From a virus (lineage: Duplodnaviria; Heunggongvirae; Uroviricota; Caudoviricetes): a stretch of 7,777 nucleotides of DNA. The notes under the pieces were generated by a model that was not told where the DNA came from, searched no databases, and saw only the letters and a program-made list of their open reading frames with translations. Positions 1-7,777 of the stretch are shown piece after piece (position 1 is the first letter of the stretch; each line of letters starts with the position of its first letter). Location of the stretch: the IMG/VR virus record IMGVR_UViG_2667527998_000003, positions 1 through 7,777 of that record; one strand, 5' to 3'. A program made the position numbers and the translations under genes.

Positions 1-44
1 TCCTTCTGATGCCATTCTATTTCAGGAAGGAGTGTCCGTTAAAC

Positions 45-239
45 TCAGGCTACCTCACCCGTCCCGGATACCGAGAACGTTTCGTCCAGCAACTGGAGAG
101 AGTTCGACGGTGGCATCATTGCCCATGCCGGAGGCGCTGGAGGTTTCGGCTGAGGATGGCACAGGGCATTTTCCTTTGACGAGCACCCGACCACCATTAT
201 CAAGCTTGCGCCGAAGAGCATCATTTTCAGCTTTCGCAT
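45..239 (-). CDS. Rz1: Rz1-like o-spanin (outer-membrane lipoprotein), embedded in the +1 frame of Rz and extending about 10 nt past the Rz stop
   Basis: 64-aa translation [21 protein letters not shown]... has a lipoprotein signal with lipobox Cys near residue 19 and a proline-rich mature part ([11 protein letters not shown]), resembling lambda Rz1 as I remember it. ATG at 239..237 is preceded by an AAGGAG Shine-Dalgarno about 8 nt upstream. Confidence 0.85.
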
Positions 240-459
240 CAGCTAACTCCTTCGTGTATTTAGCATCGAGTGCATCAGCATCACGCTGGCGCTGCTGCAT
301 GTCAGTAATGGTTGCGTTCGCCAGCTTCAGTTCTCCGGCGTTTTTGTCGCGCTGCTCTTTGTAGGTAATGGCGTTATCACGGTAATGATTAACAGCCCAT
401 GACAGGCAGACGATGATGCAGATAACCAGAGCGGAGATAATCGCGGTGACTCTGCTCAT
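55..459 (-). CDS. Rz: Rz-like i-spanin (inner-membrane spanin subunit)
   Basis: From ATG 459..457 the protein begins [34 protein letters not shown]..., which matches the lambda Rz N-terminus as I recall it, with an N-terminal TM segment and coiled-coil middle. The start overlaps the endolysin stop (ATGA) and a GGGGGA RBS lies upstream. The track ORF start at 474 is a TTG and less likely. Confidence 0.85.
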
Positions 460-989
460 TGATCTATCCCCCAACAGGCTAATGCGCTTTCCTGGTCACG
501 ACGAATAACCTGTCCATAGCAGTTATTTGAACGTATGCGGCAATCGCGCCCAACATCTTTTATCCACCAGCGAATCGCCTCGCATGCGCCCTTACGATCA
601 CCGGCATTCAGCCGCTTATAAAACGTCGACGGGAAACACTTACCGGGGCCAATGTTATAGGGGCAAAATGACGCTATACCCGCTTTCTGGGGTTCGGTCA
701 GAGGTACTTTAATATTGCGCTCCACCCATGCCAGCGCCTTATCACGTTCAATAGCGTTAACCTGGTCACATTTTTCCTTCGACAGCTTCATTCCCGGTAT
801 GACAGGCTTACCATCCACCATTGTGGCACCACGACAGATGGTCCATATGCCAGAACCATCACGGTATGCCGTTGTGTGATTACCCTCTTTTTCGTTCAGA
901 AACTGGTCAAGTATCTGGGGAGCAGACGCGCCTGCGGCAATCAGCGCCAGAACAGCAGCCGACAGGCCGTATTTGATTTTTGCGCTCAT
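456..989 (-). CDS. R: SAR endolysin, T4-lysozyme-like (GH24) muramidase with N-terminal signal-anchor-release domain
   Basis: 177 aa with a Gly/Ala-rich weakly hydrophobic N-terminus ([18 protein letters not shown]), a catalytic E-x8-D-x5-T triad ([16 protein letters not shown]) and a C-terminal CWG motif, resembling phage-21-type R21/RrrD endolysins. It sits between the holin region and Rz. No obvious Shine-Dalgarno precedes the ATG. Confidence 0.9.
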
Positions 990-1054
990 GGATATTTATC
1001 AGGATTTATCGGCAACAAATAACGAGCCAACTTATATACGCCTTTTAAGATAAG

Positions 1055-1684
1055 TCAGCCCCGGCTGGATCCAGTCATCAGGCTCTTTCTTAAAGGGGGA
1101 GTATTGAAATCACGAAGAAGAGCCTCCCGCACCGCAGCATCCATGTCTGCACCACTGGCAAGTGCTTCAATCTCTGCCGCCACCTGCAAATACCCCATGC
1201 AACGGCCAATGCGTTTCATAACTCTGGTGTTTTCGTCTTTCAGGCATCTGATAGCGAGATTAATAATTTTCAGGCAGTGATGATGCGATGCCCGGACAGG
1301 TTTTCCGTTCTCATAAACGACGAACTCACCCTCTTCACAGGAAACCCTGAAAGGCCGATGGGGTTCCTGGTCTTTATCCGGTGCAGACGCAATAAAATCA
1401 CTTTTATGCTCTTCCTCTCCGGCACTGTTAACCGTAATGACGTACTCAGGCCGCAGGTAAGCCGCCTCTTTTTCTGACAATGCGGCCGGTAAAAACTTTT
1501 CCTGCAAAAACTTCATAAAAGTCTCGTGAGCGACTTTGTGGCAGTAATCGTAAATCGCCGCATAATGCTCATCGCGGCGTTTGTTTTCATCTTCAGAACT
1601 CACCAACGCCGACAATTTTTTATTAAGCTCAGTGATTTCATTTTCCAGGTGATTGAATCGCTGATTCATTTCTTCATGCTTCAT
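1055..1684 (-). CDS. hypothetical 209-aa soluble protein inserted between pinholin and endolysin; function unknown
   Basis: Intact ORF whose ATG (1684..1682) lies 3 nt after the holin stop and is preceded by a GGGGAGAG RBS. The N-terminus is a predicted coiled coil (MKHEEMNQRFNHLENEITELNKKLSAL); there is no signal peptide, no TM segment and no motif I recognise. Confidence 0.6.
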   Translation of the reverse strand: MKHEEMNQRFNHLENEITELNKKLSALVSSEDENKRRDEHYAAIYDYCHKVAHETFMKFLQEKFLPAALSEKEAAYLRPEYVITVNSAGEEEHKSDFIASAPDKDQEPHRPFRVSCEEGEFVVYENGKPVRASHHHCLKIINLAIRCLKDENTRVMKRIGRCMGYLQVAAEIEALASGADMDAAVREALLRDFNTPPLRKSLMTGSSRG

Positions 1685-1687
1685 TAT

Positions 1688-1873
1688 TTACTCTCCCCGT
1701 GCAGCCTTACGCTTGTCTTCTCTTATTTTGAAATACAGATTCGTCAGATAAGTCAGAAGCCCCAGAAGCAGACTTCCCAGCACACCAATCGCAGCCCACT
1801 GTGATGGCCTGACCTGATCCAACCACTGCAAAAACCAGTAGCCGGCACTGCCGGCGGAGGTGCCGTAGGCAAT
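1688..1873 (-). CDS. S: class II pinholin, phage-21 S21-like, 5'-truncated by the N-run (start codon not present)
   Basis: My own translation of the minus strand gives [61 protein letters not shown] followed by TAA at 1690..1688, near-identical to the S21 pinholin sequence as I remember it. About 7-10 N-terminal codons are lost in the N-run at 1874-1883. It is absent from the ORF track because it has no start codon. Confidence 0.8.
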
Positions 1874-1883
1874 NNNNNNNNNN
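1874..1883. other. run of 10 N (assembly gap or masked bases) interrupting the holin 5' end
   Basis: Literal n characters in the sequence; the flanking sequence on the high-coordinate side does not encode the expected holin N-terminus. Confidence 0.95.
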
Positions 1884-1945
1884 CCGCAAATAACGGATGG
1901 CGTAGTTTTACACTGAGAAATGAAAGGGATTTGAAAAGAAAAAAC

Positions 1946-2152
1946 CGCAAAAGCGGGCGAAACGATATATACAATAAGGAAAGCACTCTATCCAACAAAC
2001 CACTCACAGTTAATCGGAATAAAAGCAGAGTGCTTATGAATGATCGCCTGCCCGAAGGTTAGTATTTCTGCACAGCAATTTTGCAAAAAAAAGCGATCAT
2101 TCATAACTTAAACGTCTTTCAGTCACTCCGGGATTTCCCATCATCGCAGACT
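1946..2152. repeat. copy 1 of a ~207-bp non-coding direct repeat unit with internal inverted repeats
   Basis: 1946-2152 aligns without gaps to 2164-2370 with 5 mismatches. It contains 14-bp inverted-repeat arms TTATGAATGATCGC (2034-2047) and GCGATCATTCATAA (2093-2106) around a 45-nt loop, plus an outer 7-bp inverted repeat GCACTCT/AGAGTGC. No credible ORF. Confidence 0.8.
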
Positions 2153-2162
2153 NNNNNNNNNN
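2153..2162. other. run of 10 N exactly at the junction between the two repeat copies
   Basis: Literal n characters; the position coincides with the repeat boundary. Confidence 0.95.
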
Positions 2163-2163
2163 A

Positions 2164-2370
2164 CGCAAAAGCGGGCGAAACGATATATACAGTAAGGAAA
2201 GCACTCTATCCAACAAACCACCCACAGTTAATCGGAATAAAAGCAGAGTGCTTATGAATGATCGCACGCCCGAAGGTTAGTATTTCTGCACAGCAATTTT
2301 GCAAAAAAAGGCGATCATTCATAACTTAAACGTCTTTCAGTCACTCCGGGATTTCCCATCATCGCAGACT
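2164..2370. repeat. copy 2 of the ~207-bp non-coding direct repeat unit
   Basis: Gapless alignment to 1946-2152 at about 97.6% identity; same inverted-repeat arms at 2252-2265 and 2311-2324; ends 13 nt before the 3' end of the Gly tRNA gene. Confidence 0.8.
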
Positions 2371-2383
2371 GAAAGACTCTGAC

Positions 2384-2458
<75 letters not shown>

Positions 2459-2461
2459 ATA

Positions 2462-2537
<76 letters not shown>

Positions 2538-2539
2538 AC

Positions 2540-2616
2540 TGGACCGCCACCGGGGACTCGAACCTCGCACACTCAACTTAAAGGGTTGACGCTCTTTCCT
2601 GATGAGCTAGTGGCGG
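2540..2616 (-). tRNA. atypical tRNA-like gene; anticodon loop reads UUU but with C at position 33 and one T-stem mismatch; possibly a degenerate or variant phage tRNA
   Basis: Reverse complement CCGCCACTAGCTCATCAGGAAAGAGCGTCAACCCTTTAAGTTGAGTGTGCGAGGTTCGAGTCCCCGGTGGCGGTCCA has a perfect 7-bp acceptor stem (CCGCCAC/GTGGCGG), TTCGAGT T-loop, anticodon stem TCAAC/GTTGA, loop CCTTTAA and encoded CCA. The D-loop is non-canonical and the T-stem has an A-C mismatch. Confidence 0.5.
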
Positions 2617-2617
2617 T

Positions 2618-2693
2618 TGGTGGCCCTTGCTGGATTTGAACCAGCGACCTGGCGATTATGAGTCGCTCGCTCTCACCACTGAGCTAAAGGGCC
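2618..2693 (-). tRNA. tRNA with CAU anticodon, most similar to tRNA-Ile2 (lysidine type, ileX/ileZ-like); elongator Met not excluded
   Basis: Reverse complement GGCCCTTTAGCTCAGTGGTGAGAGCGAGCGACTCATAATCGCCAGGTCGCTGGTTCAAATCCAGCAAGGGCCACCA has perfect acceptor and T stems and anticodon loop CTCATAA. It is close to the E. coli ileX sequence as I remember it. Phage ileZ genes occupy this position downstream of Q. Confidence 0.8.
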
Positions 2694-2702
2694 GGGCGCA
2701 GG

Positions 2703-2731
2703 ATAATAACGTTACGAAATCAATGTTGCAA
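2703..2731 (-). promoter_or_regulatory. sigma70-type promoter for the tRNA cluster
   Basis: On the minus strand: -35 TTGCAA (2731..2726), 17-bp spacer, -10 TATTAT (2708..2703), then GC-rich discriminator CCTGCGCCC running into the tRNA 5' end at 2693, as is typical of stable-RNA promoters. Confidence 0.5.
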
Positions 2732-2795
2732 GCATTCAAAAATCACCCTTATCTCCTCCACCAGCGCATTCACCATGTCTATCCGAGATAAGTGG

Positions 2796-2828
2796 CACAA
2801 AAAACCCGCTTGTGGGCGGGTTTTGTTT
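2796..2828. terminator. intrinsic terminator hairpin with U-tracts on both sides; tR'-like for the minus-strand late leader
   Basis: Stem AAAACCCGC (2801-2809) pairs with GCGGGTTTT (2816-2824) around a 6-nt loop. The minus strand reads GCGGGTTTTTTGTG after the stem and the plus strand reads TTTTGTTTG. It is near-identical in architecture to the hairpin at 4398-4424. Confidence 0.65.
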
Positions 2829-2874
2829 GCTTTTGCCATCACGTACAAAATCGGCAAAGTATCAGATTTGCATG

Positions 2875-2903
2875 AATATATGCCTTTCAATCTACTTTTG
2901 CAA
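2875..2903 (-). promoter_or_regulatory. candidate late promoter (pR'-like) overlapping the 3' end of the 229-aa gene
   Basis: Minus strand: -35 TTGCAA (2903..2898), 17-bp spacer, -10 TATATT (2880..2875), with an A-tract upstream. The predicted start near 2868 gives a 45-65-nt leader ending at the 2801-2824 terminator, the classic pR'-tR' arrangement. A -10-like GATACT in the early transcribed region could be a pause element. Confidence 0.45.
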
Positions 2904-3575
2904 CACTTTGCTTTGAAAATGCCGTCTTTTTTTTGAACGTGTTCTCATTACAAACAATAAAGCCTCACTATCCAGTCGGTGAAAAATGTGTTTCATTGCA
3001 ACCCAGTGACGAGTAAATGTTTTGGACCAGTTTTTAGTTGTCACTCCCGCCAGTAATGCCAGCTCCTGGTATTCATAACCTTCCCCACCAAAAAGTTCTG
3101 CTTTTACTGCCTGCGCCGCCAGCCAGATTAATTTTTTCAGGCGTTCCTGCGTTTTCCCTGCAATTTTTCTGGTACCGGATTGAGCATTAAATTCATTCCA
3201 CGCCCACTGTGTTATCGCGATCTGATATTCCCAACAAATACTCCCGCTGTAACACCACAACAACCAGGCTTTATAGTGCTCTTCAAGAGACAGAACAGCC
3301 CGCCGCCACGATGATGTCGAAAACTCAACCGGACTGACCAGAGGAATTGACGTCCCCTTCGCCAGCGATTGCTTTCCCGGGATTGGTGGATTATCCCGCG
3401 TTATCATTTTTCCAGTCACTTCATCGCGGTACCGGATTTTTTTACGCCTGTAACGCCCTGTATCGAACATGGCATTCTCTTGCCAGGCTTCAAGCTGACC
3501 TTTTGTTGCCCCACTCAAATCAGCGGTGGCGATAATGAGCTGCTCACGCACAAACTGTAAATACTGGTTATTCAT
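2892..3575 (-). CDS. putative late-gene antitermination protein (Q-like), 227-229 aa; assignment mainly positional
   Basis: Intact ORF directly downstream of rusA (start overlaps the RusA stop; ATG at 3575..3573, alternative GTG at 3581) and directly upstream of the promoter, terminator, tRNAs and lysis genes, which is the canonical Q position. I do not recognise the sequence itself with certainty. Confidence 0.45.
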   Translation of the reverse strand: MNNQYLQFVREQLIIATADLSGATKGQLEAWQENAMFDTGRYRRKKIRYRDEVTGKMITRDNPPIPGKQSLAKGTSIPLVSPVEFSTSSWRRAVLSLEEHYKAWLLWCYSGSICWEYQIAITQWAWNEFNAQSGTRKIAGKTQERLKKLIWLAAQAVKAELFGGEGYEYQELALLAGVTTKNWSKTFTRHWVAMKHIFHRLDSEALLFVMRTRSKKRRHFQSKVLQK

Positions 3576-3937
3576 GCGCACCCCAGTTCTGTGATTTTTA
3601 TCCCCAGCCGCCCACCAGGAACGAGCTGACCGCGCACAATATTGATTTCATCAAACTGCTCGTCGTCTATAAGTAGTCCAGCATGCGTCAGCGCATCCAG
3701 CGGTGCCTTCAGGATATTGTCCAGGTCACGACGGCGCTTATCCGGTGGCTCTGCAATAATCTTTATCGCCAGCCTTCCGGACAGGTTTAATTTCAGTCGC
3801 TGCTGGCGAACAATTAGCGCCACATCACGGCGATAACGCTCACCGGCTTTTGATACAAAATATGTGCTGCCACGACGTCGCCAGTAGGTGTTCACCGTTG
3901 GCGGGTAAGGCAAAACAAATTCTATGCGTTCGGTCAT
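3572..3937 (-). CDS. rusA: RusA-family Holliday junction resolvase
   Basis: 121 aa MTERIEFVLPYPPTVNTYWRRRG...PPDKRRRDLDNILKAPLDALTHAGLLIDDEQ... aligns by eye with E. coli RusA (conserved DRRRRDLDN and DALT.AG..DD.Q blocks). Typical nin-region location. Confidence 0.85.
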   Translation of the reverse strand: MTERIEFVLPYPPTVNTYWRRRGSTYFVSKAGERYRRDVALIVRQQRLKLNLSGRLAIKIIAEPPDKRRRDLDNILKAPLDALTHAGLLIDDEQFDEINIVRGQLVPGGRLGIKITELGCA

Positions 3938-4207
3938 TTATGCTTTCCACTTCAGAACACCCGAATTTCTCGCGTGCATTAAAAAACGAATCAGCAACAA
4001 CAACTGACTACCGTGTTTTTCTTCAAAATCTTTTACCCCGGCGTGTAGTTCGTTATGGCATTTACGACACAGCGGAATAACAAACAAATCGTCAGCCTTT
4101 GTTCCCATCCCTCCCAGTCCATGACCAATGATGTGGTGCGGATCATCTGCCTGATTGCCACACGTCATGCATTTCTGCGTTTTTACCCAGCGCGTGTATA
4201 CAGGCAT
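3938..4207 (-). CDS. YbcO-like (DUF1364) zinc-binding protein with HNH-type motif arrangement, putative nuclease
   Basis: From MPVYTRW the 89-aa protein carries CMTC...DPHH...GTK...LCRKCHNELH (two CxxC pairs, HH dyad, CH-N-x2-H). Its stop abuts the rusA ATG. The true start is uncertain: the frame stays open upstream to the N-run, and a GTG about 24 codons upstream with an AGGAAG RBS is an alternative. Confidence 0.6.
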   Translation of the reverse strand: MPVYTRWVKTQKCMTCGNQADDPHHIIGHGLGGMGTKADDLFVIPLCRKCHNELHAGVKDFEEKHGSQLLLLIRFLMHARNSGVLKWKA

Positions 4208-4358
4208 CTCTTCCCGTTGTGGTTTCTGGCGCTGGAGATACTGAGCCGGAGATTCCGGATCAACGGCAATGCTGACCACCGTCTCTTCCTGTGGTGGATT
4301 CTGTTGCTGGTGGGCGTGAGGCAGCGGCGCAAGATTTTTTGTGCGCTGCTTCAGTATG

Positions 4359-4368
4359 NNNNNNNNNN
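4359..4368. other. run of 10 N between the terminator after the Q gene and the nin-type genes
   Basis: Literal n characters. Confidence 0.95.
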
Positions 4369-4397
4369 TGTTTAACGTCCTGTACCGTTTTTCAGGC

Positions 4398-4424
4398 ATA
4401 AAAAACCCGCCCGGAGGCGGGTTT
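4398..4424 (-). terminator. intrinsic terminator (tR'-like) about 90 nt downstream of the QuuD-type Q gene
   Basis: Stem AAACCCGCC (4403-4411) pairs with GGCGGGTTT (4416-4424) around loop CGGA. The minus strand reads GGCGGGTTTTTTATGCC; the plus-strand side lacks a U-tract. Confidence 0.65.
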
Positions 4425-4467
4425 AAGCTGTGTGGCGAAGCAACCACTCTTAACAGAATATCCCGTT

Positions 4468-4496
4468 TTTTACGTACGTAAAATATTTTCTAGAAA
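4468..4496. promoter_or_regulatory. pair of perfect palindromes in the interval between the Q stop and the terminator; candidate protein-binding or late-promoter region
   Basis: TTTTACGTACGTAAAA (4468-4483, 16 bp perfect) and TTTCTAGAAA (4487-4496, 10 bp perfect) lie 3 nt apart. No convincing -35/-10 pair could be assigned by eye. Confidence 0.35.
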
Positions 4497-4510
4497 GTCG
4501 CCCCTTACCA

Positions 4511-4891
4511 TCAGGGATGTTCAATATATTTGTCCATTTCTAACCGGACACCCAACATCATCAACATTCCTTCCACCACCCCCTCGGCTTTTTGTAGCTT
4601 CTTTCCTATATAACCATCTGAGCATCCATGCTTCCGCGCCAGCGTCATGAATGTCATCCCAAACACGTAGTAGTCAACCAGCAAGTCATGTAGATCGTTG
4701 TTGTTCCGGTTAAGGCGGGCCATACACCCACATATAACCATCGCGTCATCGTCACAGCATTGCGGGCGGGATTTTACTTTTGAAGGGATTAATCCCTTAA
4801 AACCGGCAGCAATGGACGACCAGGTCACATCCTCATGATTATTAGCCACCCACGCGCCCCAGCGCTCAAGAACCTGCTGAATATCACGCAT
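4511..4891 (-). CDS. Q: antitermination protein Q, QuuD/phage-21 type (about 126 aa)
   Basis: From ATG 4891..4889 the protein [60 protein letters not shown]... is strongly similar to DLP12 QuuD as I recall it. It sits immediately after ninH with an 8-nt overlap. The track ORF start at 4927 is a TTG inside ninH. Confidence 0.8.
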
Positions 4892-5084
4892 CACTGTCTT
4901 TACCCCTGTCCCATCCACGATGAACAATCAGAACACCATCAACAATGGCGTGCCCTTTGCCCTCTTTATCTTCAGCATATTTTCTTACCGTGGCGCGATT
5001 ACAGTTCAGCATTCGTGAAACTTCGGTCATATTACCTCGTGTCTGGATAAGCAGTTCCGGTATCGTTTGAATTTTGACGCTCAT
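4884..5084 (-). CDS. ninH: NinH-like small DNA-binding protein
   Basis: 66 aa [58 protein letters not shown]... aligns along its length with lambda NinH from memory. ATG at 5084..5082 is preceded by a GGAGAG RBS. Confidence 0.85.
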
Positions 5085-5179
5085 CAAATACTCTCCGGTT
5101 CGGTGATTTTTATCCCGGGCTTTCCACCAGGGACATAATGATCGCGCACAAGCCAGGGCAAAACAAACTCATGGCGCAT
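5084..5179 (-). pseudogene. rusA remnant: 31-codon in-frame fusion of RusA N- and C-terminal segments (internal deletion of roughly 90 codons)
   Basis: My translation of the minus strand is MRHEFVLPWLVRDHYVPGGKPGIKITEPESI followed by TGA. EFVLP matches the N-terminus and VPGGKPGIKITE the C-terminus of the intact RusA at 3572-3937 (RIEFVLPYPP... and ...LVPGGRLGIKITELGCA). The DNA at 5101-5150 is visibly similar to 3590-3640. Start and stop overlap the neighbouring genes. Confidence 0.5.
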
Positions 5180-5436
5180 CAGCGCAGCGCCTCCTGCACC
5201 AGTTTTTCAAACTTTCCGACTCTGGTTTCCAGCTCTGCCACACAGTCCACCAGCTCATCTACTGCTTTCTGTGCGCGATGCTTCGCCTGCATCAGTTCCC
5301 GAAGCGCGGGTACCATATCTTTACGGATAGCATCTTTTGTTATGCCCGTTTTTTCGAGTTGTTCAGCATGACGCAGCATTTCCTGCGCGTGTTTACGCAA
5401 TTGTTCAGGGGTAAAAGTCATTGTCTGGTTGTTCAA
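5179..5436 (-). CDS. hypothetical 80-85-aa helical protein, function unknown
   Basis: ORF begins at the helicase stop (TTG overlapping TGA at 5436; first ATG at 5421) and ends in an overlap with the rusA remnant start. Charged, helix-prone sequence with no motif I recognise. Confidence 0.5.
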   Translation of the reverse strand: MNNQTMTFTPEQLRKHAQEMLRHAEQLEKTGITKDAIRKDMVPALRELMQAKHRAQKAVDELVDCVAELETRVGKFEKLVQEALR

Positions 5437-6824
5437 AAGAAACGCTCCATCTTACTGCTGTCAGTTCGTTTATTACTGTATCTGCGCGGATTGCCGGGCT
5501 TCATGGGAGTGGAAAGCACCCGTGCACTTTCCTGGTCCACAGGCAGAAAATGTCCGTTATAAAAACGCCGGTAAATCGTTCCCAGAGAACCGTTACGTTG
5601 TTTCGTGATATTGATTTCTGCGATGCCCCTGGCCTGCGTATCCGGGTTGTACACTTCATCCCTGTAAAGCATCAGAATGATGTCTGCATCCGCCTCTATT
5701 TCTCCGGAATTTTTCAGGTCTGAGTTCATGGGACGTTTATTGGGTCTGGACTCCACACCGCGGGAGAGCTGGCTCAGCGCAATCAACGGAAAACCACCGG
5801 ATTTTGCCAGGCCTTTAAGCCCCTTTGAGATTTCACCCACGGCAAGGTCATGACGCCCCGTGGTTCGGGTTTTTATCAGCCCGAGATAATCAACCACCAC
5901 CAGCGCCGTTTCCGGATATTTAATCAGGTGGTGTTTCGTTGTTGCGCATATCTCATCAATGGCCAGGTTCGCCTGGTCCACCATCCAGATATTGCGCCCG
6001 GTCATCCGCCCCACCCCTTGTGAGAAACGCGTCCAGTCTTCATCTTCAAAGTGAGCCACAGATTTCAGGCGTGATACTGGCATCCCTCCAGCCGCAGACA
6101 CCATACGTTCACCAATCTGGATGTTCGCCATCTCCATGGTGAACAGAAGCACACCATGCCCCTGCTCAGTCACCTTGTCGATGATGTCCAGCGCAAGTTC
6201 GGTTTTCCCCATCGAAGGACGGGCGGCAATGAATACCAGGTCTCCGGGCTCCATACCGCCTGTTTTTGCGTCCAGTTCATCAATACCGGTCATCAACGTC
6301 CTGGATTTCTCCAGCCCCTGATTCCGGCATTCAACACGCTCAACCACTTCCGGAAGCACATCATCAATATGTACCGGCTGAATGACGCCCTTTCCTGTCG
6401 ACAGTGTGACCATCATGTTCTGCGCATCCTTCAGGGCATCTTCAGCTGCTTCACAGGTATGCGCATCACGTAATTTCTGCAGCGCCTCATTCAGTGTTTT
6501 TTCTGCATCGCGCAGTGCGGCATTGCGCCGCAACGCTGCAACATAGTGCTCCAGTGAAGACTTCACCCAGGTTTTACGCCCGGTATCAGTAATCACCGGG
6601 GCAAGTTCCGGCATCTCATTACACAACAGCACGGGGTCAATCACTCCTGAAACACGGGCCTGTCTGCAGATGCCTGTATAGATATCCTGATACGCTCGTA
6701 CAGAAAAAACGTCCGCTGGCAGTGTGGCCAGAATATCCATCACTTCAGGATCTGCTCCGCGCAGAAAGAACGCGCCGATGACAGCGCCTTCAAGGTCATC
6801 GTTACGCCATACTGGAGTTGTCAT
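5433..6824 (-). CDS. DnaB-family replicative DNA helicase (phage-encoded)
   Basis: 463 aa with Walker A AARPSMGKTELAL, Walker B LVVVDYLGLI and the conserved block ALSQLSRGVESRPNKRPMNSDLKNSGEIEADADIILMLYRDEVY, which parallels E. coli DnaB. The ATG overlaps the upstream gene stop (ATGA). Confidence 0.9.
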   Translation of the reverse strand: MTTPVWRNDDLEGAVIGAFFLRGADPEVMDILATLPADVFSVRAYQDIYTGICRQARVSGVIDPVLLCNEMPELAPVITDTGRKTWVKSSLEHYVAALRRNAALRDAEKTLNEALQKLRDAHTCEAAEDALKDAQNMMVTLSTGKGVIQPVHIDDVLPEVVERVECRNQGLEKSRTLMTGIDELDAKTGGMEPGDLVFIAARPSMGKTELALDIIDKVTEQGHGVLLFTMEMANIQIGERMVSAAGGMPVSRLKSVAHFEDEDWTRFSQGVGRMTGRNIWMVDQANLAIDEICATTKHHLIKYPETALVVVDYLGLIKTRTTGRHDLAVGEISKGLKGLAKSGGFPLIALSQLSRGVESRPNKRPMNSDLKNSGEIEADADIILMLYRDEVYNPDTQARGIAEINITKQRNGSLGTIYRRFYNGHFLPVDQESARVLSTPMKPGNPRRYSNKRTDSSKMERFF

Positions 6825-7699
6825 GCAGCCACACCTCTGATACGAGAACGGTAACTGGGCCAGTTAAACGACAACCAGTTGCGTCCCCCGTCTGTGATCC
6901 TGTCGGCAATTCGGGGACTGATGAACGCCCACAACTCTTCCGGTGAGAGGTTACTGATCAGAATGGTGGGCAAGATACTTTCGTACCTGGCGTTGATAAT
7001 TTCCTGCAAAATAGCCATTTCAGCCGCGCTGCCAAACTGAACGCCAACTTCGTCGATGATCAGCAAATCCATTGACGCATAACGCTCAATAACTTCATCC
7101 GCTGTTTTTTCGCTGTCATTCCGCCAGCAATTTTTCACAGCACGGGTAAGGCGCATCACGTCGGTGATCTCCACACTGGCCAGATAGTTACGGATGATGT
7201 GTTTTGCCATAGCCACAGCCAGATGATTTTTTCCGGTACCACAACTGCCGGTCATAACAAGACTGGTACCGTTCTCCAGCATATCTGGCCAGTTCTCCGC
7301 ATAGCGGCGACAGGCCGCAAGATTTCTGGCTGCGCCAGGATTAACCTCCAGATAATTATCAAACTCGCAGTCCCGAAAACGCAGGGCAATTCCGGCGTTA
7401 TCAGTCAGCTCTTCCGCCTTGATGGACGACAGCTCCATGGTCAAATCGTTGGCCTCAGCGATTAAGCAGTCAGGGCAGCATGAAATTTCTTCTCTGTCCT
7501 CGCCATTACGATCGCTCCACACCAGTATATGCGTGTGATATTCGCCATGTTTTTCGCAATATCCGCGACCTTCACGCATCAGGCAGGAACGATAAGGCCA
7601 TGGCTTTTCGCCCTTCTGAGCAAATGCAATCTCTGCCCGTAACTCATCCATTCGCGCCTGTAGTCTTTTTTGTTGTTCACGCAGGTTAAACGTCATCAT
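6821..7699 (-). CDS. DnaC-like helicase loader (AAA+ ATPase) with an N-terminal Cys/His-rich extension
   Basis: Walker A GSCGTGKNHLAVA (the GTGKNHLA signature of DnaC), Walker B DLLIIDEVG and C-terminal WLSFNWPSYRSRIRG (compare DnaC WVIFNWDSYRSRVTG). The N-terminal part has C-x3-H-x3-H-x-H and CC-x2-C. Start taken as ATG 7699..7697 with a GAGGTGA RBS; the frame also remains open upstream to the window edge. Confidence 0.85.
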   Translation of the reverse strand: MMTFNLREQQKRLQARMDELRAEIAFAQKGEKPWPYRSCLMREGRGYCEKHGEYHTHILVWSDRNGEDREEISCCPDCLIAEANDLTMELSSIKAEELTDNAGIALRFRDCEFDNYLEVNPGAARNLAACRRYAENWPDMLENGTSLVMTGSCGTGKNHLAVAMAKHIIRNYLASVEITDVMRLTRAVKNCWRNDSEKTADEVIERYASMDLLIIDEVGVQFGSAAEMAILQEIINARYESILPTILISNLSPEELWAFISPRIADRITDGGRNWLSFNWPSYRSRIRGVAA

Positions 7700-7777
7700 C
7701 GCTGTCACCTCAGAATGTCTGAAGTGGCACACTGAATTTGGCCACCTGAACAGAGGTGATATGCTCACCTCAGAACA

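Follow-up and report, generated by a model that had tools for sequence, protein, structure and literature searches.

How is translation of a phage endolysin gene initiated when no Shine-Dalgarno (SD) sequence precedes its start codon? This question is raised by the lysis cassette in a stretch of 7,777 nucleotides from a virus of the Caudoviricetes (positions 1 to 7,777 of IMG/VR record IMGVR_UViG_2667527998_000003), which was analyzed at its full length and is called the window in the following. The feature under study is the 65-nt spacer between the endolysin gene and the gene upstream of it.

The endolysin start within the lysis cassette

The lysis cassette is encoded on the minus strand of the window in the order holin, gene X, endolysin, Rz and Rz1. 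The S21-type class II holin (pinholin family, PF04971) is represented by its 3' part only (1688-1873, with the stop at 1688). The window is a scaffold with three linkers of 10 N each (1874-1883, 2153-2162 and 4359-4368), and the first approximately 38 nt of the holin gene fall together with its ribosome-binding site into the assembly gap at 1874-1883. Gene X (1055-1684), located between holin and endolysin, encodes a protein of 209 aa which matched phrog_1085; no Pfam family was found for this protein. The endolysin gene (456-989) is intact and encodes an RrrQ-like protein of 177 aa with a match to Phage_lysozyme (PF00959, residues 33-167, E = 5.4e-24). Its translation contains the E-X8-D-X5-T catalytic triad in the definition quoted in PMC9239132. 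The N-terminus, as read from the sequence, has basic residues ahead of a membrane segment that is weakly hydrophobic and rich in Ala, Gly and Ser. Judged by these features the protein is a SAR endolysin, i.e., a T4-lysozyme-like muramidase with a predicted signal-anchor-release domain.

Downstream of the endolysin the gene for the i-spanin Rz (55-459, minus strand) starts with an ATG which overlaps the endolysin stop codon (ATGA at 456-459) and which is preceded by a good SD, GGGGGA. The gene for the o-spanin Rz1 (45-239, minus strand) is embedded in Rz and has the SD AAGGAG. By its sequence the endolysin-Rz junction is classically coupled, unlike the junction between gene X and the endolysin, where no stop/start overlap was found and the stop codon lies 65 nt (ancestrally 42 nt) upstream of the start.

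The region 990-1054 coincides with the interval that separates the gene X stop codon TGA (1055-1057) from the endolysin start codon ATG (987-989), as the preliminary description of the window had placed it. On the minus strand the spacer reads CTTATCTTAAAAGGCGTATATAAGTTGGCTCGTTATTTGTTGCCGATAAATCCTGATAAATATCC from 1054 to 990, ends in GATAAATCCTGATAAATATCC and is followed by the ATG. The preliminary description had also stated that this spacer lacks a GGAG-like element, and this was confirmed. None of the motifs GGAG, GAGG, AGGA and GGA occurs anywhere in the 65 nt, and no GGA, GAG or AGG was found within 50 nt upstream of the ATG; the sole AGG/AAGG of the spacer is located at −54/−55. The best duplex between the endolysin leader (−22 to −4) and the 3' end of 16S rRNA had an energy of +0.3 kcal/mol.

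Clear ribosome-binding sites had been claimed for all neighbouring genes. For gene X, Rz and Rz1 this holds true, with anti-SD duplex energies of −8.5, −8.4 and −8.3 kcal/mol, respectively (approximately −8.4 kcal/mol throughout). The ribosome-binding site of the holin is lost in the N gap of the window; it is visible in the complete genome L001 (99.7% identical), where it reads GGAGGTGAGGCTATG. The SD of gene X, GGGGAGAG, is embedded in the 3' end of the holin gene, GCACGGGGAGAGTAAATAATG, which precedes and serves gene X in the window.

The ATG at 989 is the first possible start codon of the endolysin reading frame. Alternative start codons are present neither in frame upstream nor downstream ahead of the membrane segment. 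The SD is absent, yet the evidence supports this ATG, and it is consequently kept as the annotated start.

Opening of the mRNA at the true endolysin AUG requires a calculated 6.3 kcal/mol versus 11.2-20.2 kcal/mol at the eleven internal ATG triplets of the gene. For the starts of Rz and Rz1 values of 12.2 and 11.4 kcal/mol were calculated.

The leader in related cassettes

The present length of the spacer is due to a 1-nt deletion in gene X. In the alignment with related genes this deletion corresponds to a run of five C (1095-1099, minus strand), and it shifts the frame of the last approximately 14 codons. Relatives of gene X with 213 aa end in ...WIQPGLTYLKGRI at a TAA which matches 1034-1032 of the window. 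This TAA (1032-1034, minus strand) is the gene X stop in the ancestral frame, 42 nt before the endolysin ATG, which leaves 990-1031 as the ancestral intergenic spacer. The other 23 nt are former coding sequence exposed by the deletion. Compared with the 213-aa relatives, the C-terminus ...PPFKKEPDDWIQPGLTYLKGRI is replaced by ...PPLRKSLMTGSSRG in the 209-aa form, which stops at the TGA at 1055-1057. The deletion was found in the window, in six near-identical E. coli genomes and in one Shigella flexneri genome; L001 and L084 are among its carriers. Its occurrence in all these genomes shows that it is genuine and no sequencing artefact. For a related copy (L158) the annotation gives a frameshift.

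A protein-based search of IMG/VR yielded 80 loci with endolysins of at least 94% identity. Their upstream sequences belong to several unrelated classes which converge on one start-proximal sequence; the leaders end in ...AACCGATAAATCCTGATAAATATCC-ATG, in ...GGTAGCATCCTGATAAATATCC-ATG or, in the Qin type, in ...CATCATAAATATCT-ATG. Among 50 unique relatives the majority-base fraction was 0.56 at positions −60 to −25, 0.67 at −24 to −17 and 0.97 at −16 to −1. Within the coding region of the same relatives it amounted to 0.973 at codon positions 1 and 2 and to 0.84 at third positions. Thus, the last approximately 16 nt are near-invariant compared with the sequence upstream, appear to be under constraint and are part of the endolysin module. 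In the window this SD-less core of the translation-initiation region is ATCCTGATAAATATCC (990-1005, minus strand), and it is followed by ATGA. The ATGA is likewise kept, since all members of the SD-less lineage have AGC or AAC as their second codon.

The core is found behind at least five unrelated upstream contexts. These include variants of YdfR/DUF1327 whose ends lie 50-65 nt ahead of the endolysin ATG, gene X with its end at a distance of 42 or 65 nt, inserts with an opposite-strand ORF that leave 450-670 nt to the end of the nearest co-directional gene, and the Qin prophage of K-12 where the ydfR stop codon overlaps the rrrQ start (ATGA).

The preliminary description had proposed separate regulation of the endolysin and had named homologous endolysins with the same A/T-rich leader and efficient, unregulated translation as the observation that would speak against it. 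The first half of this, the same leader before homologous endolysins, was observed. The segment from −24 to +40 is present at a coverage of at least 80% in at least 790 of 5,426 complete E. coli genomes, an exact 20-mer of the leader occurs in at least 119 IMG/VR contigs, and the leader is also carried by phages deposited with their propagation hosts (mEp460, 2H10, the PhiR series and Stx1a phages).

A homologue search with one genome per species resulted in 74 loci. Homologues with 68-89% identity, from Citrobacter, Enterobacter, Klebsiella, Mangrovibacter, Kluyvera and others, have clear SDs such as GGGAGGA, AAGGAAGGTGA, AAGGAGA and GGGGTGA. In about half of these loci, where the ORF filter resolved it, the upstream gene either adjoins the endolysin start or overlaps it by 1-4 nt, and the SD is located in the 3' end of this gene. 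The overlapping genes of approximately 100 aa were considered as YdfR-like; this was rejected, since in our reading their sequences are those of two-TMD holin-like proteins. Within the 74 loci the SD-less state is limited to the Escherichia/Shigella lineage, whose endolysins start with M[SN]xKI[KR]YGLS.

The two groups differ clearly at their starts. For 41 SD-less unique start regions the median SD energy was +0.6 kcal/mol at 65-75% A/U, and the median energy required to open −18 to +13 was 5.6 kcal/mol. The medians for 31 SD-bearing start regions were −8.7 kcal/mol, 50% A/U and 12.3 kcal/mol, respectively. The contrast over these 72 unique start regions is significant (Mann-Whitney p = 8e-13), and since the SD-less set is essentially one clade, it compares two lineages and not many independent events.

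Three known systems were compared with the window. One is ydfR-rrrQ of the cryptic prophage Qin (K-12, b1555/b1554), which belongs to the same endolysin lineage, has an extra gene between an S21-type holin and the endolysin and shares the SD-less core just before the start (CATCATAAATATCT-ATGA versus CCTGATAAATATCC-ATGA). In contrast to the window the Qin leader is coding sequence, and the distal copy of GATAAAT is missing there; the upstream gene of the window is the unrelated gene X domain with its stop 65 nt (ancestrally 42 nt) away.

In phage mEp460, deposited with an E. coli host, gp55 (YdfR family) is followed by gp56 (lysozyme) with the identical core ATCCTGATAAATATCC-ATG, a spacer of 55 nt and no SD. 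It differs in its upstream gene, which is a YdfR variant, and in the lack of the distal GATAAAT (GGTAGCATCCTGATAAATATCC). Finally, the essD-rrrD region of DLP12, which is of the phage 21 S21-R21 type, likewise encodes a pinholin-type holin followed by SAR endolysin, Rz and Rz1. The preliminary description had recommended a comparison with rrrD, and this comparison bore out the difference between the two starts. The rrrD gene of K-12 starts at a TAATG overlapping the essD stop and uses the SD GAGGTGA within the last codons of the holin, whereas the endolysin of the window is without SD and the holin-embedded SD serves gene X.

Probable SD-independent initiation and other readings of the start

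The region is best explained as the ordinary junction of the accessory gene X (phrog_1085) and an RrrQ-type SAR endolysin in the lysis cassette of a lambdoid prophage, in which the last approximately 16-24 nt would be the endolysin's own translation-initiation region. Sequence and predicted structure taken together, initiation is probably constitutive and SD-independent on an unstructured A/U-rich site, and this would be the ordinary, lineage-wide start of RrrQ-type endolysins. A/U-rich leaders are bound by ribosomal protein S1. We propose that initiation by 30S subunits takes place de novo, with no need for anti-SD pairing, at the A/U-rich, weakly structured stretch around the AUG, probably with the help of S1, and that its rate is probably below that of the SD-led neighbours. 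The comparison with related cassettes suggests a general arrangement in which the holin directly precedes the endolysin and the SD lies inside the 3' codons of the holin. An extra gene (YdfR/DUF1327 or gene X) would then have been placed after the holin and would now use the holin-embedded SD, while the endolysin would have kept only the A/U-rich leader, which in Qin is the 3' coding end of ydfR.

Such starts have been described before. According to Scharff et al. (2011, PMC3121790), mRNAs that lack an SD show less structure around the start, and a local absence of folding is both required and enough for SD-independent start selection. The site in the window resembles this class in having no anti-SD pairing, a high A/U content and a predicted structure minimum at the true AUG; the class is defined functionally, and the window site was assigned to it from sequence and predicted structure. 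SD-less A/U-rich starts are thus already a known kind, and the endolysin junction is a new and well-populated example. Literature searches on ydfR/holin/endolysin, on DUF1327 and on SAR endolysins together with Shine-Dalgarno returned nothing on the gene X/YdfR-endolysin junction, and for mEp460 only prophage-annotation papers were retrieved.

The assignment clarifies that a lysis cassette of a well-studied type contains a gene with a non-SD start and that this is a trait of the lineage rather than a local oddity. It also provides a compact natural comparison for SD-independent initiation: within one protein family the starts of several genera are structured and have an SD, whereas those of Escherichia are unstructured and have none.

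SD-independent initiation could be extended by the assumption that the weak start is an adaptive dosage set-point, i.e., that a low synthesis of the SAR endolysin avoids early, holin-independent lysis. We regard this extension as possible but rather doubtful. SAR endolysins can be released spontaneously at a low rate and then lyse cells without holin (PMC9239132), which agrees with a benefit of low dosage. Moreover, the core at −16 to −1 is conserved like non-synonymous sites (0.97 versus 0.84 at third positions), and the whole lineage stays SD-less though one or two point mutations could create an SD. However, R21/RrrD and the homologues from Citrobacter, Enterobacter and Klebsiella are also of the SAR type (N-terminal segment of the KLSAAVLGL type) and have strong SDs. 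Consequently, low translation is no general requirement of SAR endolysins. If the weak start is adaptive, it bears on the interplay of SAR-endolysin dosage with pinholin timing.

Translational coupling appears unlikely. According to this explanation ribosomes that terminate at gene X would scan the spacer and restart at the endolysin AUG, for which no SD is needed. It is favoured by Qin, where the overlapping stop and start codons are combined with the same SD-less core ATAAATATCT, by the TGA overlapping the endolysin ATG, which is kept throughout the lineage, and by the spacer of the window, which contains no AUG or GUG ahead of the endolysin AUG. However, spacers of 42-65 nt are long for re-initiation, and in Stx-phage-type cassettes the identical start region is 450-670 nt away from the nearest co-directional ORF, with the opposite-strand ORF in between. 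Coupling to a short upstream frame was considered as well. In the window the frame after the gene X TGA runs for 22 codons without a stop, up to the TGA overlapping the endolysin ATG. The corresponding frame comprises 6-30 codons without a conserved start in the other leader classes, and in 27 of the 80 loci it consists of only 6 codons and has no start at all. An upstream mini-ORF was therefore rejected: its start codon is not conserved, and in the window the frame stays open as a consequence of the frameshift.

The constraint on −16 to −1 exceeds that on synonymous sites and would also fit a specific binding site. It is improbable, though, that selection has made the near-invariant core ATCCTGATAAATATCC-AUGA a translational attenuator, or a binding site, that is peculiar to SAR endolysins of the RrrQ type. 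If it were, endolysin synthesis would be held below that of holin and spanins or would depend on a phage or host factor, e.g., the YdfR or gene X product, and a translational layer would be added to lysis timing.

The broader proposal of a dedicated regulatory element, with the GATAAAT repeat or the core as the target of a protein or small RNA or with a hairpin that occludes the start, so that endolysin translation is controlled separately, is very unlikely. The preliminary description had pointed to a direct repeat of GATAAAT at the initiation site. Both copies are present, a distal one at 1004-1010 (−21 to −15) and a start-proximal one at 994-1000 (−11 to −5), both on the minus strand, but the repeat is neither beyond chance nor conserved. 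A direct repeat of at least 7 nt occurred in 861 of 5000 dinucleotide shuffles of the spacer (17%), and the count of GATAAAT in the whole window is unremarkable, as 53 of 200 shuffles reached 2 or more. The start-proximal copy was found in 92 of 100 related loci and both copies in 59; the distal copy, which lies at the edge of the shared module, is missing in 41. A cis-regulatory direct repeat is expected to be above chance and conserved, and neither was observed in the spacer shuffles and the 100 loci. Thus, the GATAAAT repeat is incidental and without demonstrable role.

The strong conservation of −16 to −1 would suit a regulatory element, and so would the minimum free energy (MFE) fold of the start region in the window, in which the repeat and the AUG are paired with the upstream sequence GCUCGUUAUUUGUUG. 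The same fold pairs AUGAGC with an upstream GCUCGU, and on the basis of this model some occlusion of the start is possible in the window variant. However, the fold of −71 to +60 is no better than that of shuffled sequences (z = −0.32), the upstream arm of the hairpin is class-specific and not found in the other leader classes, and the predicted opening energy is low, not high. A conserved start-occluding hairpin was rejected on the basis of the z-score and the missing conservation of the upstream arm. A search of Rfam gave no match at E ≤ 1 in positions 800-1300 of the window. No promoter or terminator matches were obtained in the spacer and no promoter-like site near it, and its position is inside the late operon. 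The sequence TAAATA at −9 to −4, as read by eye, agrees with TATAAT at 3 of 6 positions and lacks the final T. With no matches, an internal promoter, a leaderless mRNA or a terminator in the spacer is unlikely. Taken together, repeat shuffles, conservation, Rfam, promoter and terminator searches and fold tests gave no support for a dedicated regulatory element. What stands of the suggested separate control is that the start of the endolysin is of another kind than the starts of its neighbours, of R21/RrrD-type endolysins and of other enterobacterial homologues, and in this respect its translation is determined independently of the other cassette genes; a regulatory device is not supported.

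Decay of a defective prophage with loss of endolysin expression, for which the frameshift in gene X and the frameshift annotations of neighbouring genes in the near-identical L001 could be quoted, is extremely improbable, given the same leader in phages deposited with propagation hosts and an intact endolysin reading frame with E-X8-D-X5-T residues and a full PF00959 match.

Further observations on the window and on related cassettes

In the RrrQ-type lineage the interval between pinholin and SAR endolysin always holds a variable set of genes. Of the 296 positions of the profile phrog_1085, 1-79 match YdfR and 117-296 match gene X, and the IMG/VR locus L030 contains an ORF of 243 aa in which a YdfR domain comes first and which runs on past the end of YdfR. 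Several STEC-type cassettes of related E. coli loci carry an opposite-strand ORF of approximately 100 aa between gene X and endolysin (L160, 1361-1648; L161, 1077-1391; L163, 1111-1467). The insertion is at the same junction, CCG|ATAAATCC, and the ORF is followed by a perfect 7-bp hairpin, GCCAGTG-CCCAC-CACTGGC. It looks like a moron in a late operon.

Near-identical Escherichia-type endolysin loci were also found in assemblies and MAGs labelled Bacillota, Veillonella parvula, Vagococcus and Geobacteraceae (L087, L090, L109 and L129). These labels are most likely binning or contamination artefacts.

Upstream of the holin four tandem tRNA genes are located on the minus strand (2384-2693). ARAGORN called them as Met(CAT), Lys(TTT), Thr(TGT) and Gly(TCC), and the tRNA with the CAT anticodon is probably Ile2. 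The equivalent array in L001, whose lysis region is 99.7% identical, is annotated as Ile, Arg, Thr and Gly, which points to a possible difference between the two prophages at the second tRNA. A segment of approximately 220 bp occurs twice between tRNA-Gly and holin (1926-2152 and 2163-2380) with 4 mismatches; it is probably a small contig of a paralogous prophage that was placed in tandem. An ORF of 169 aa (3938-4447) is also broken by an assembly gap.
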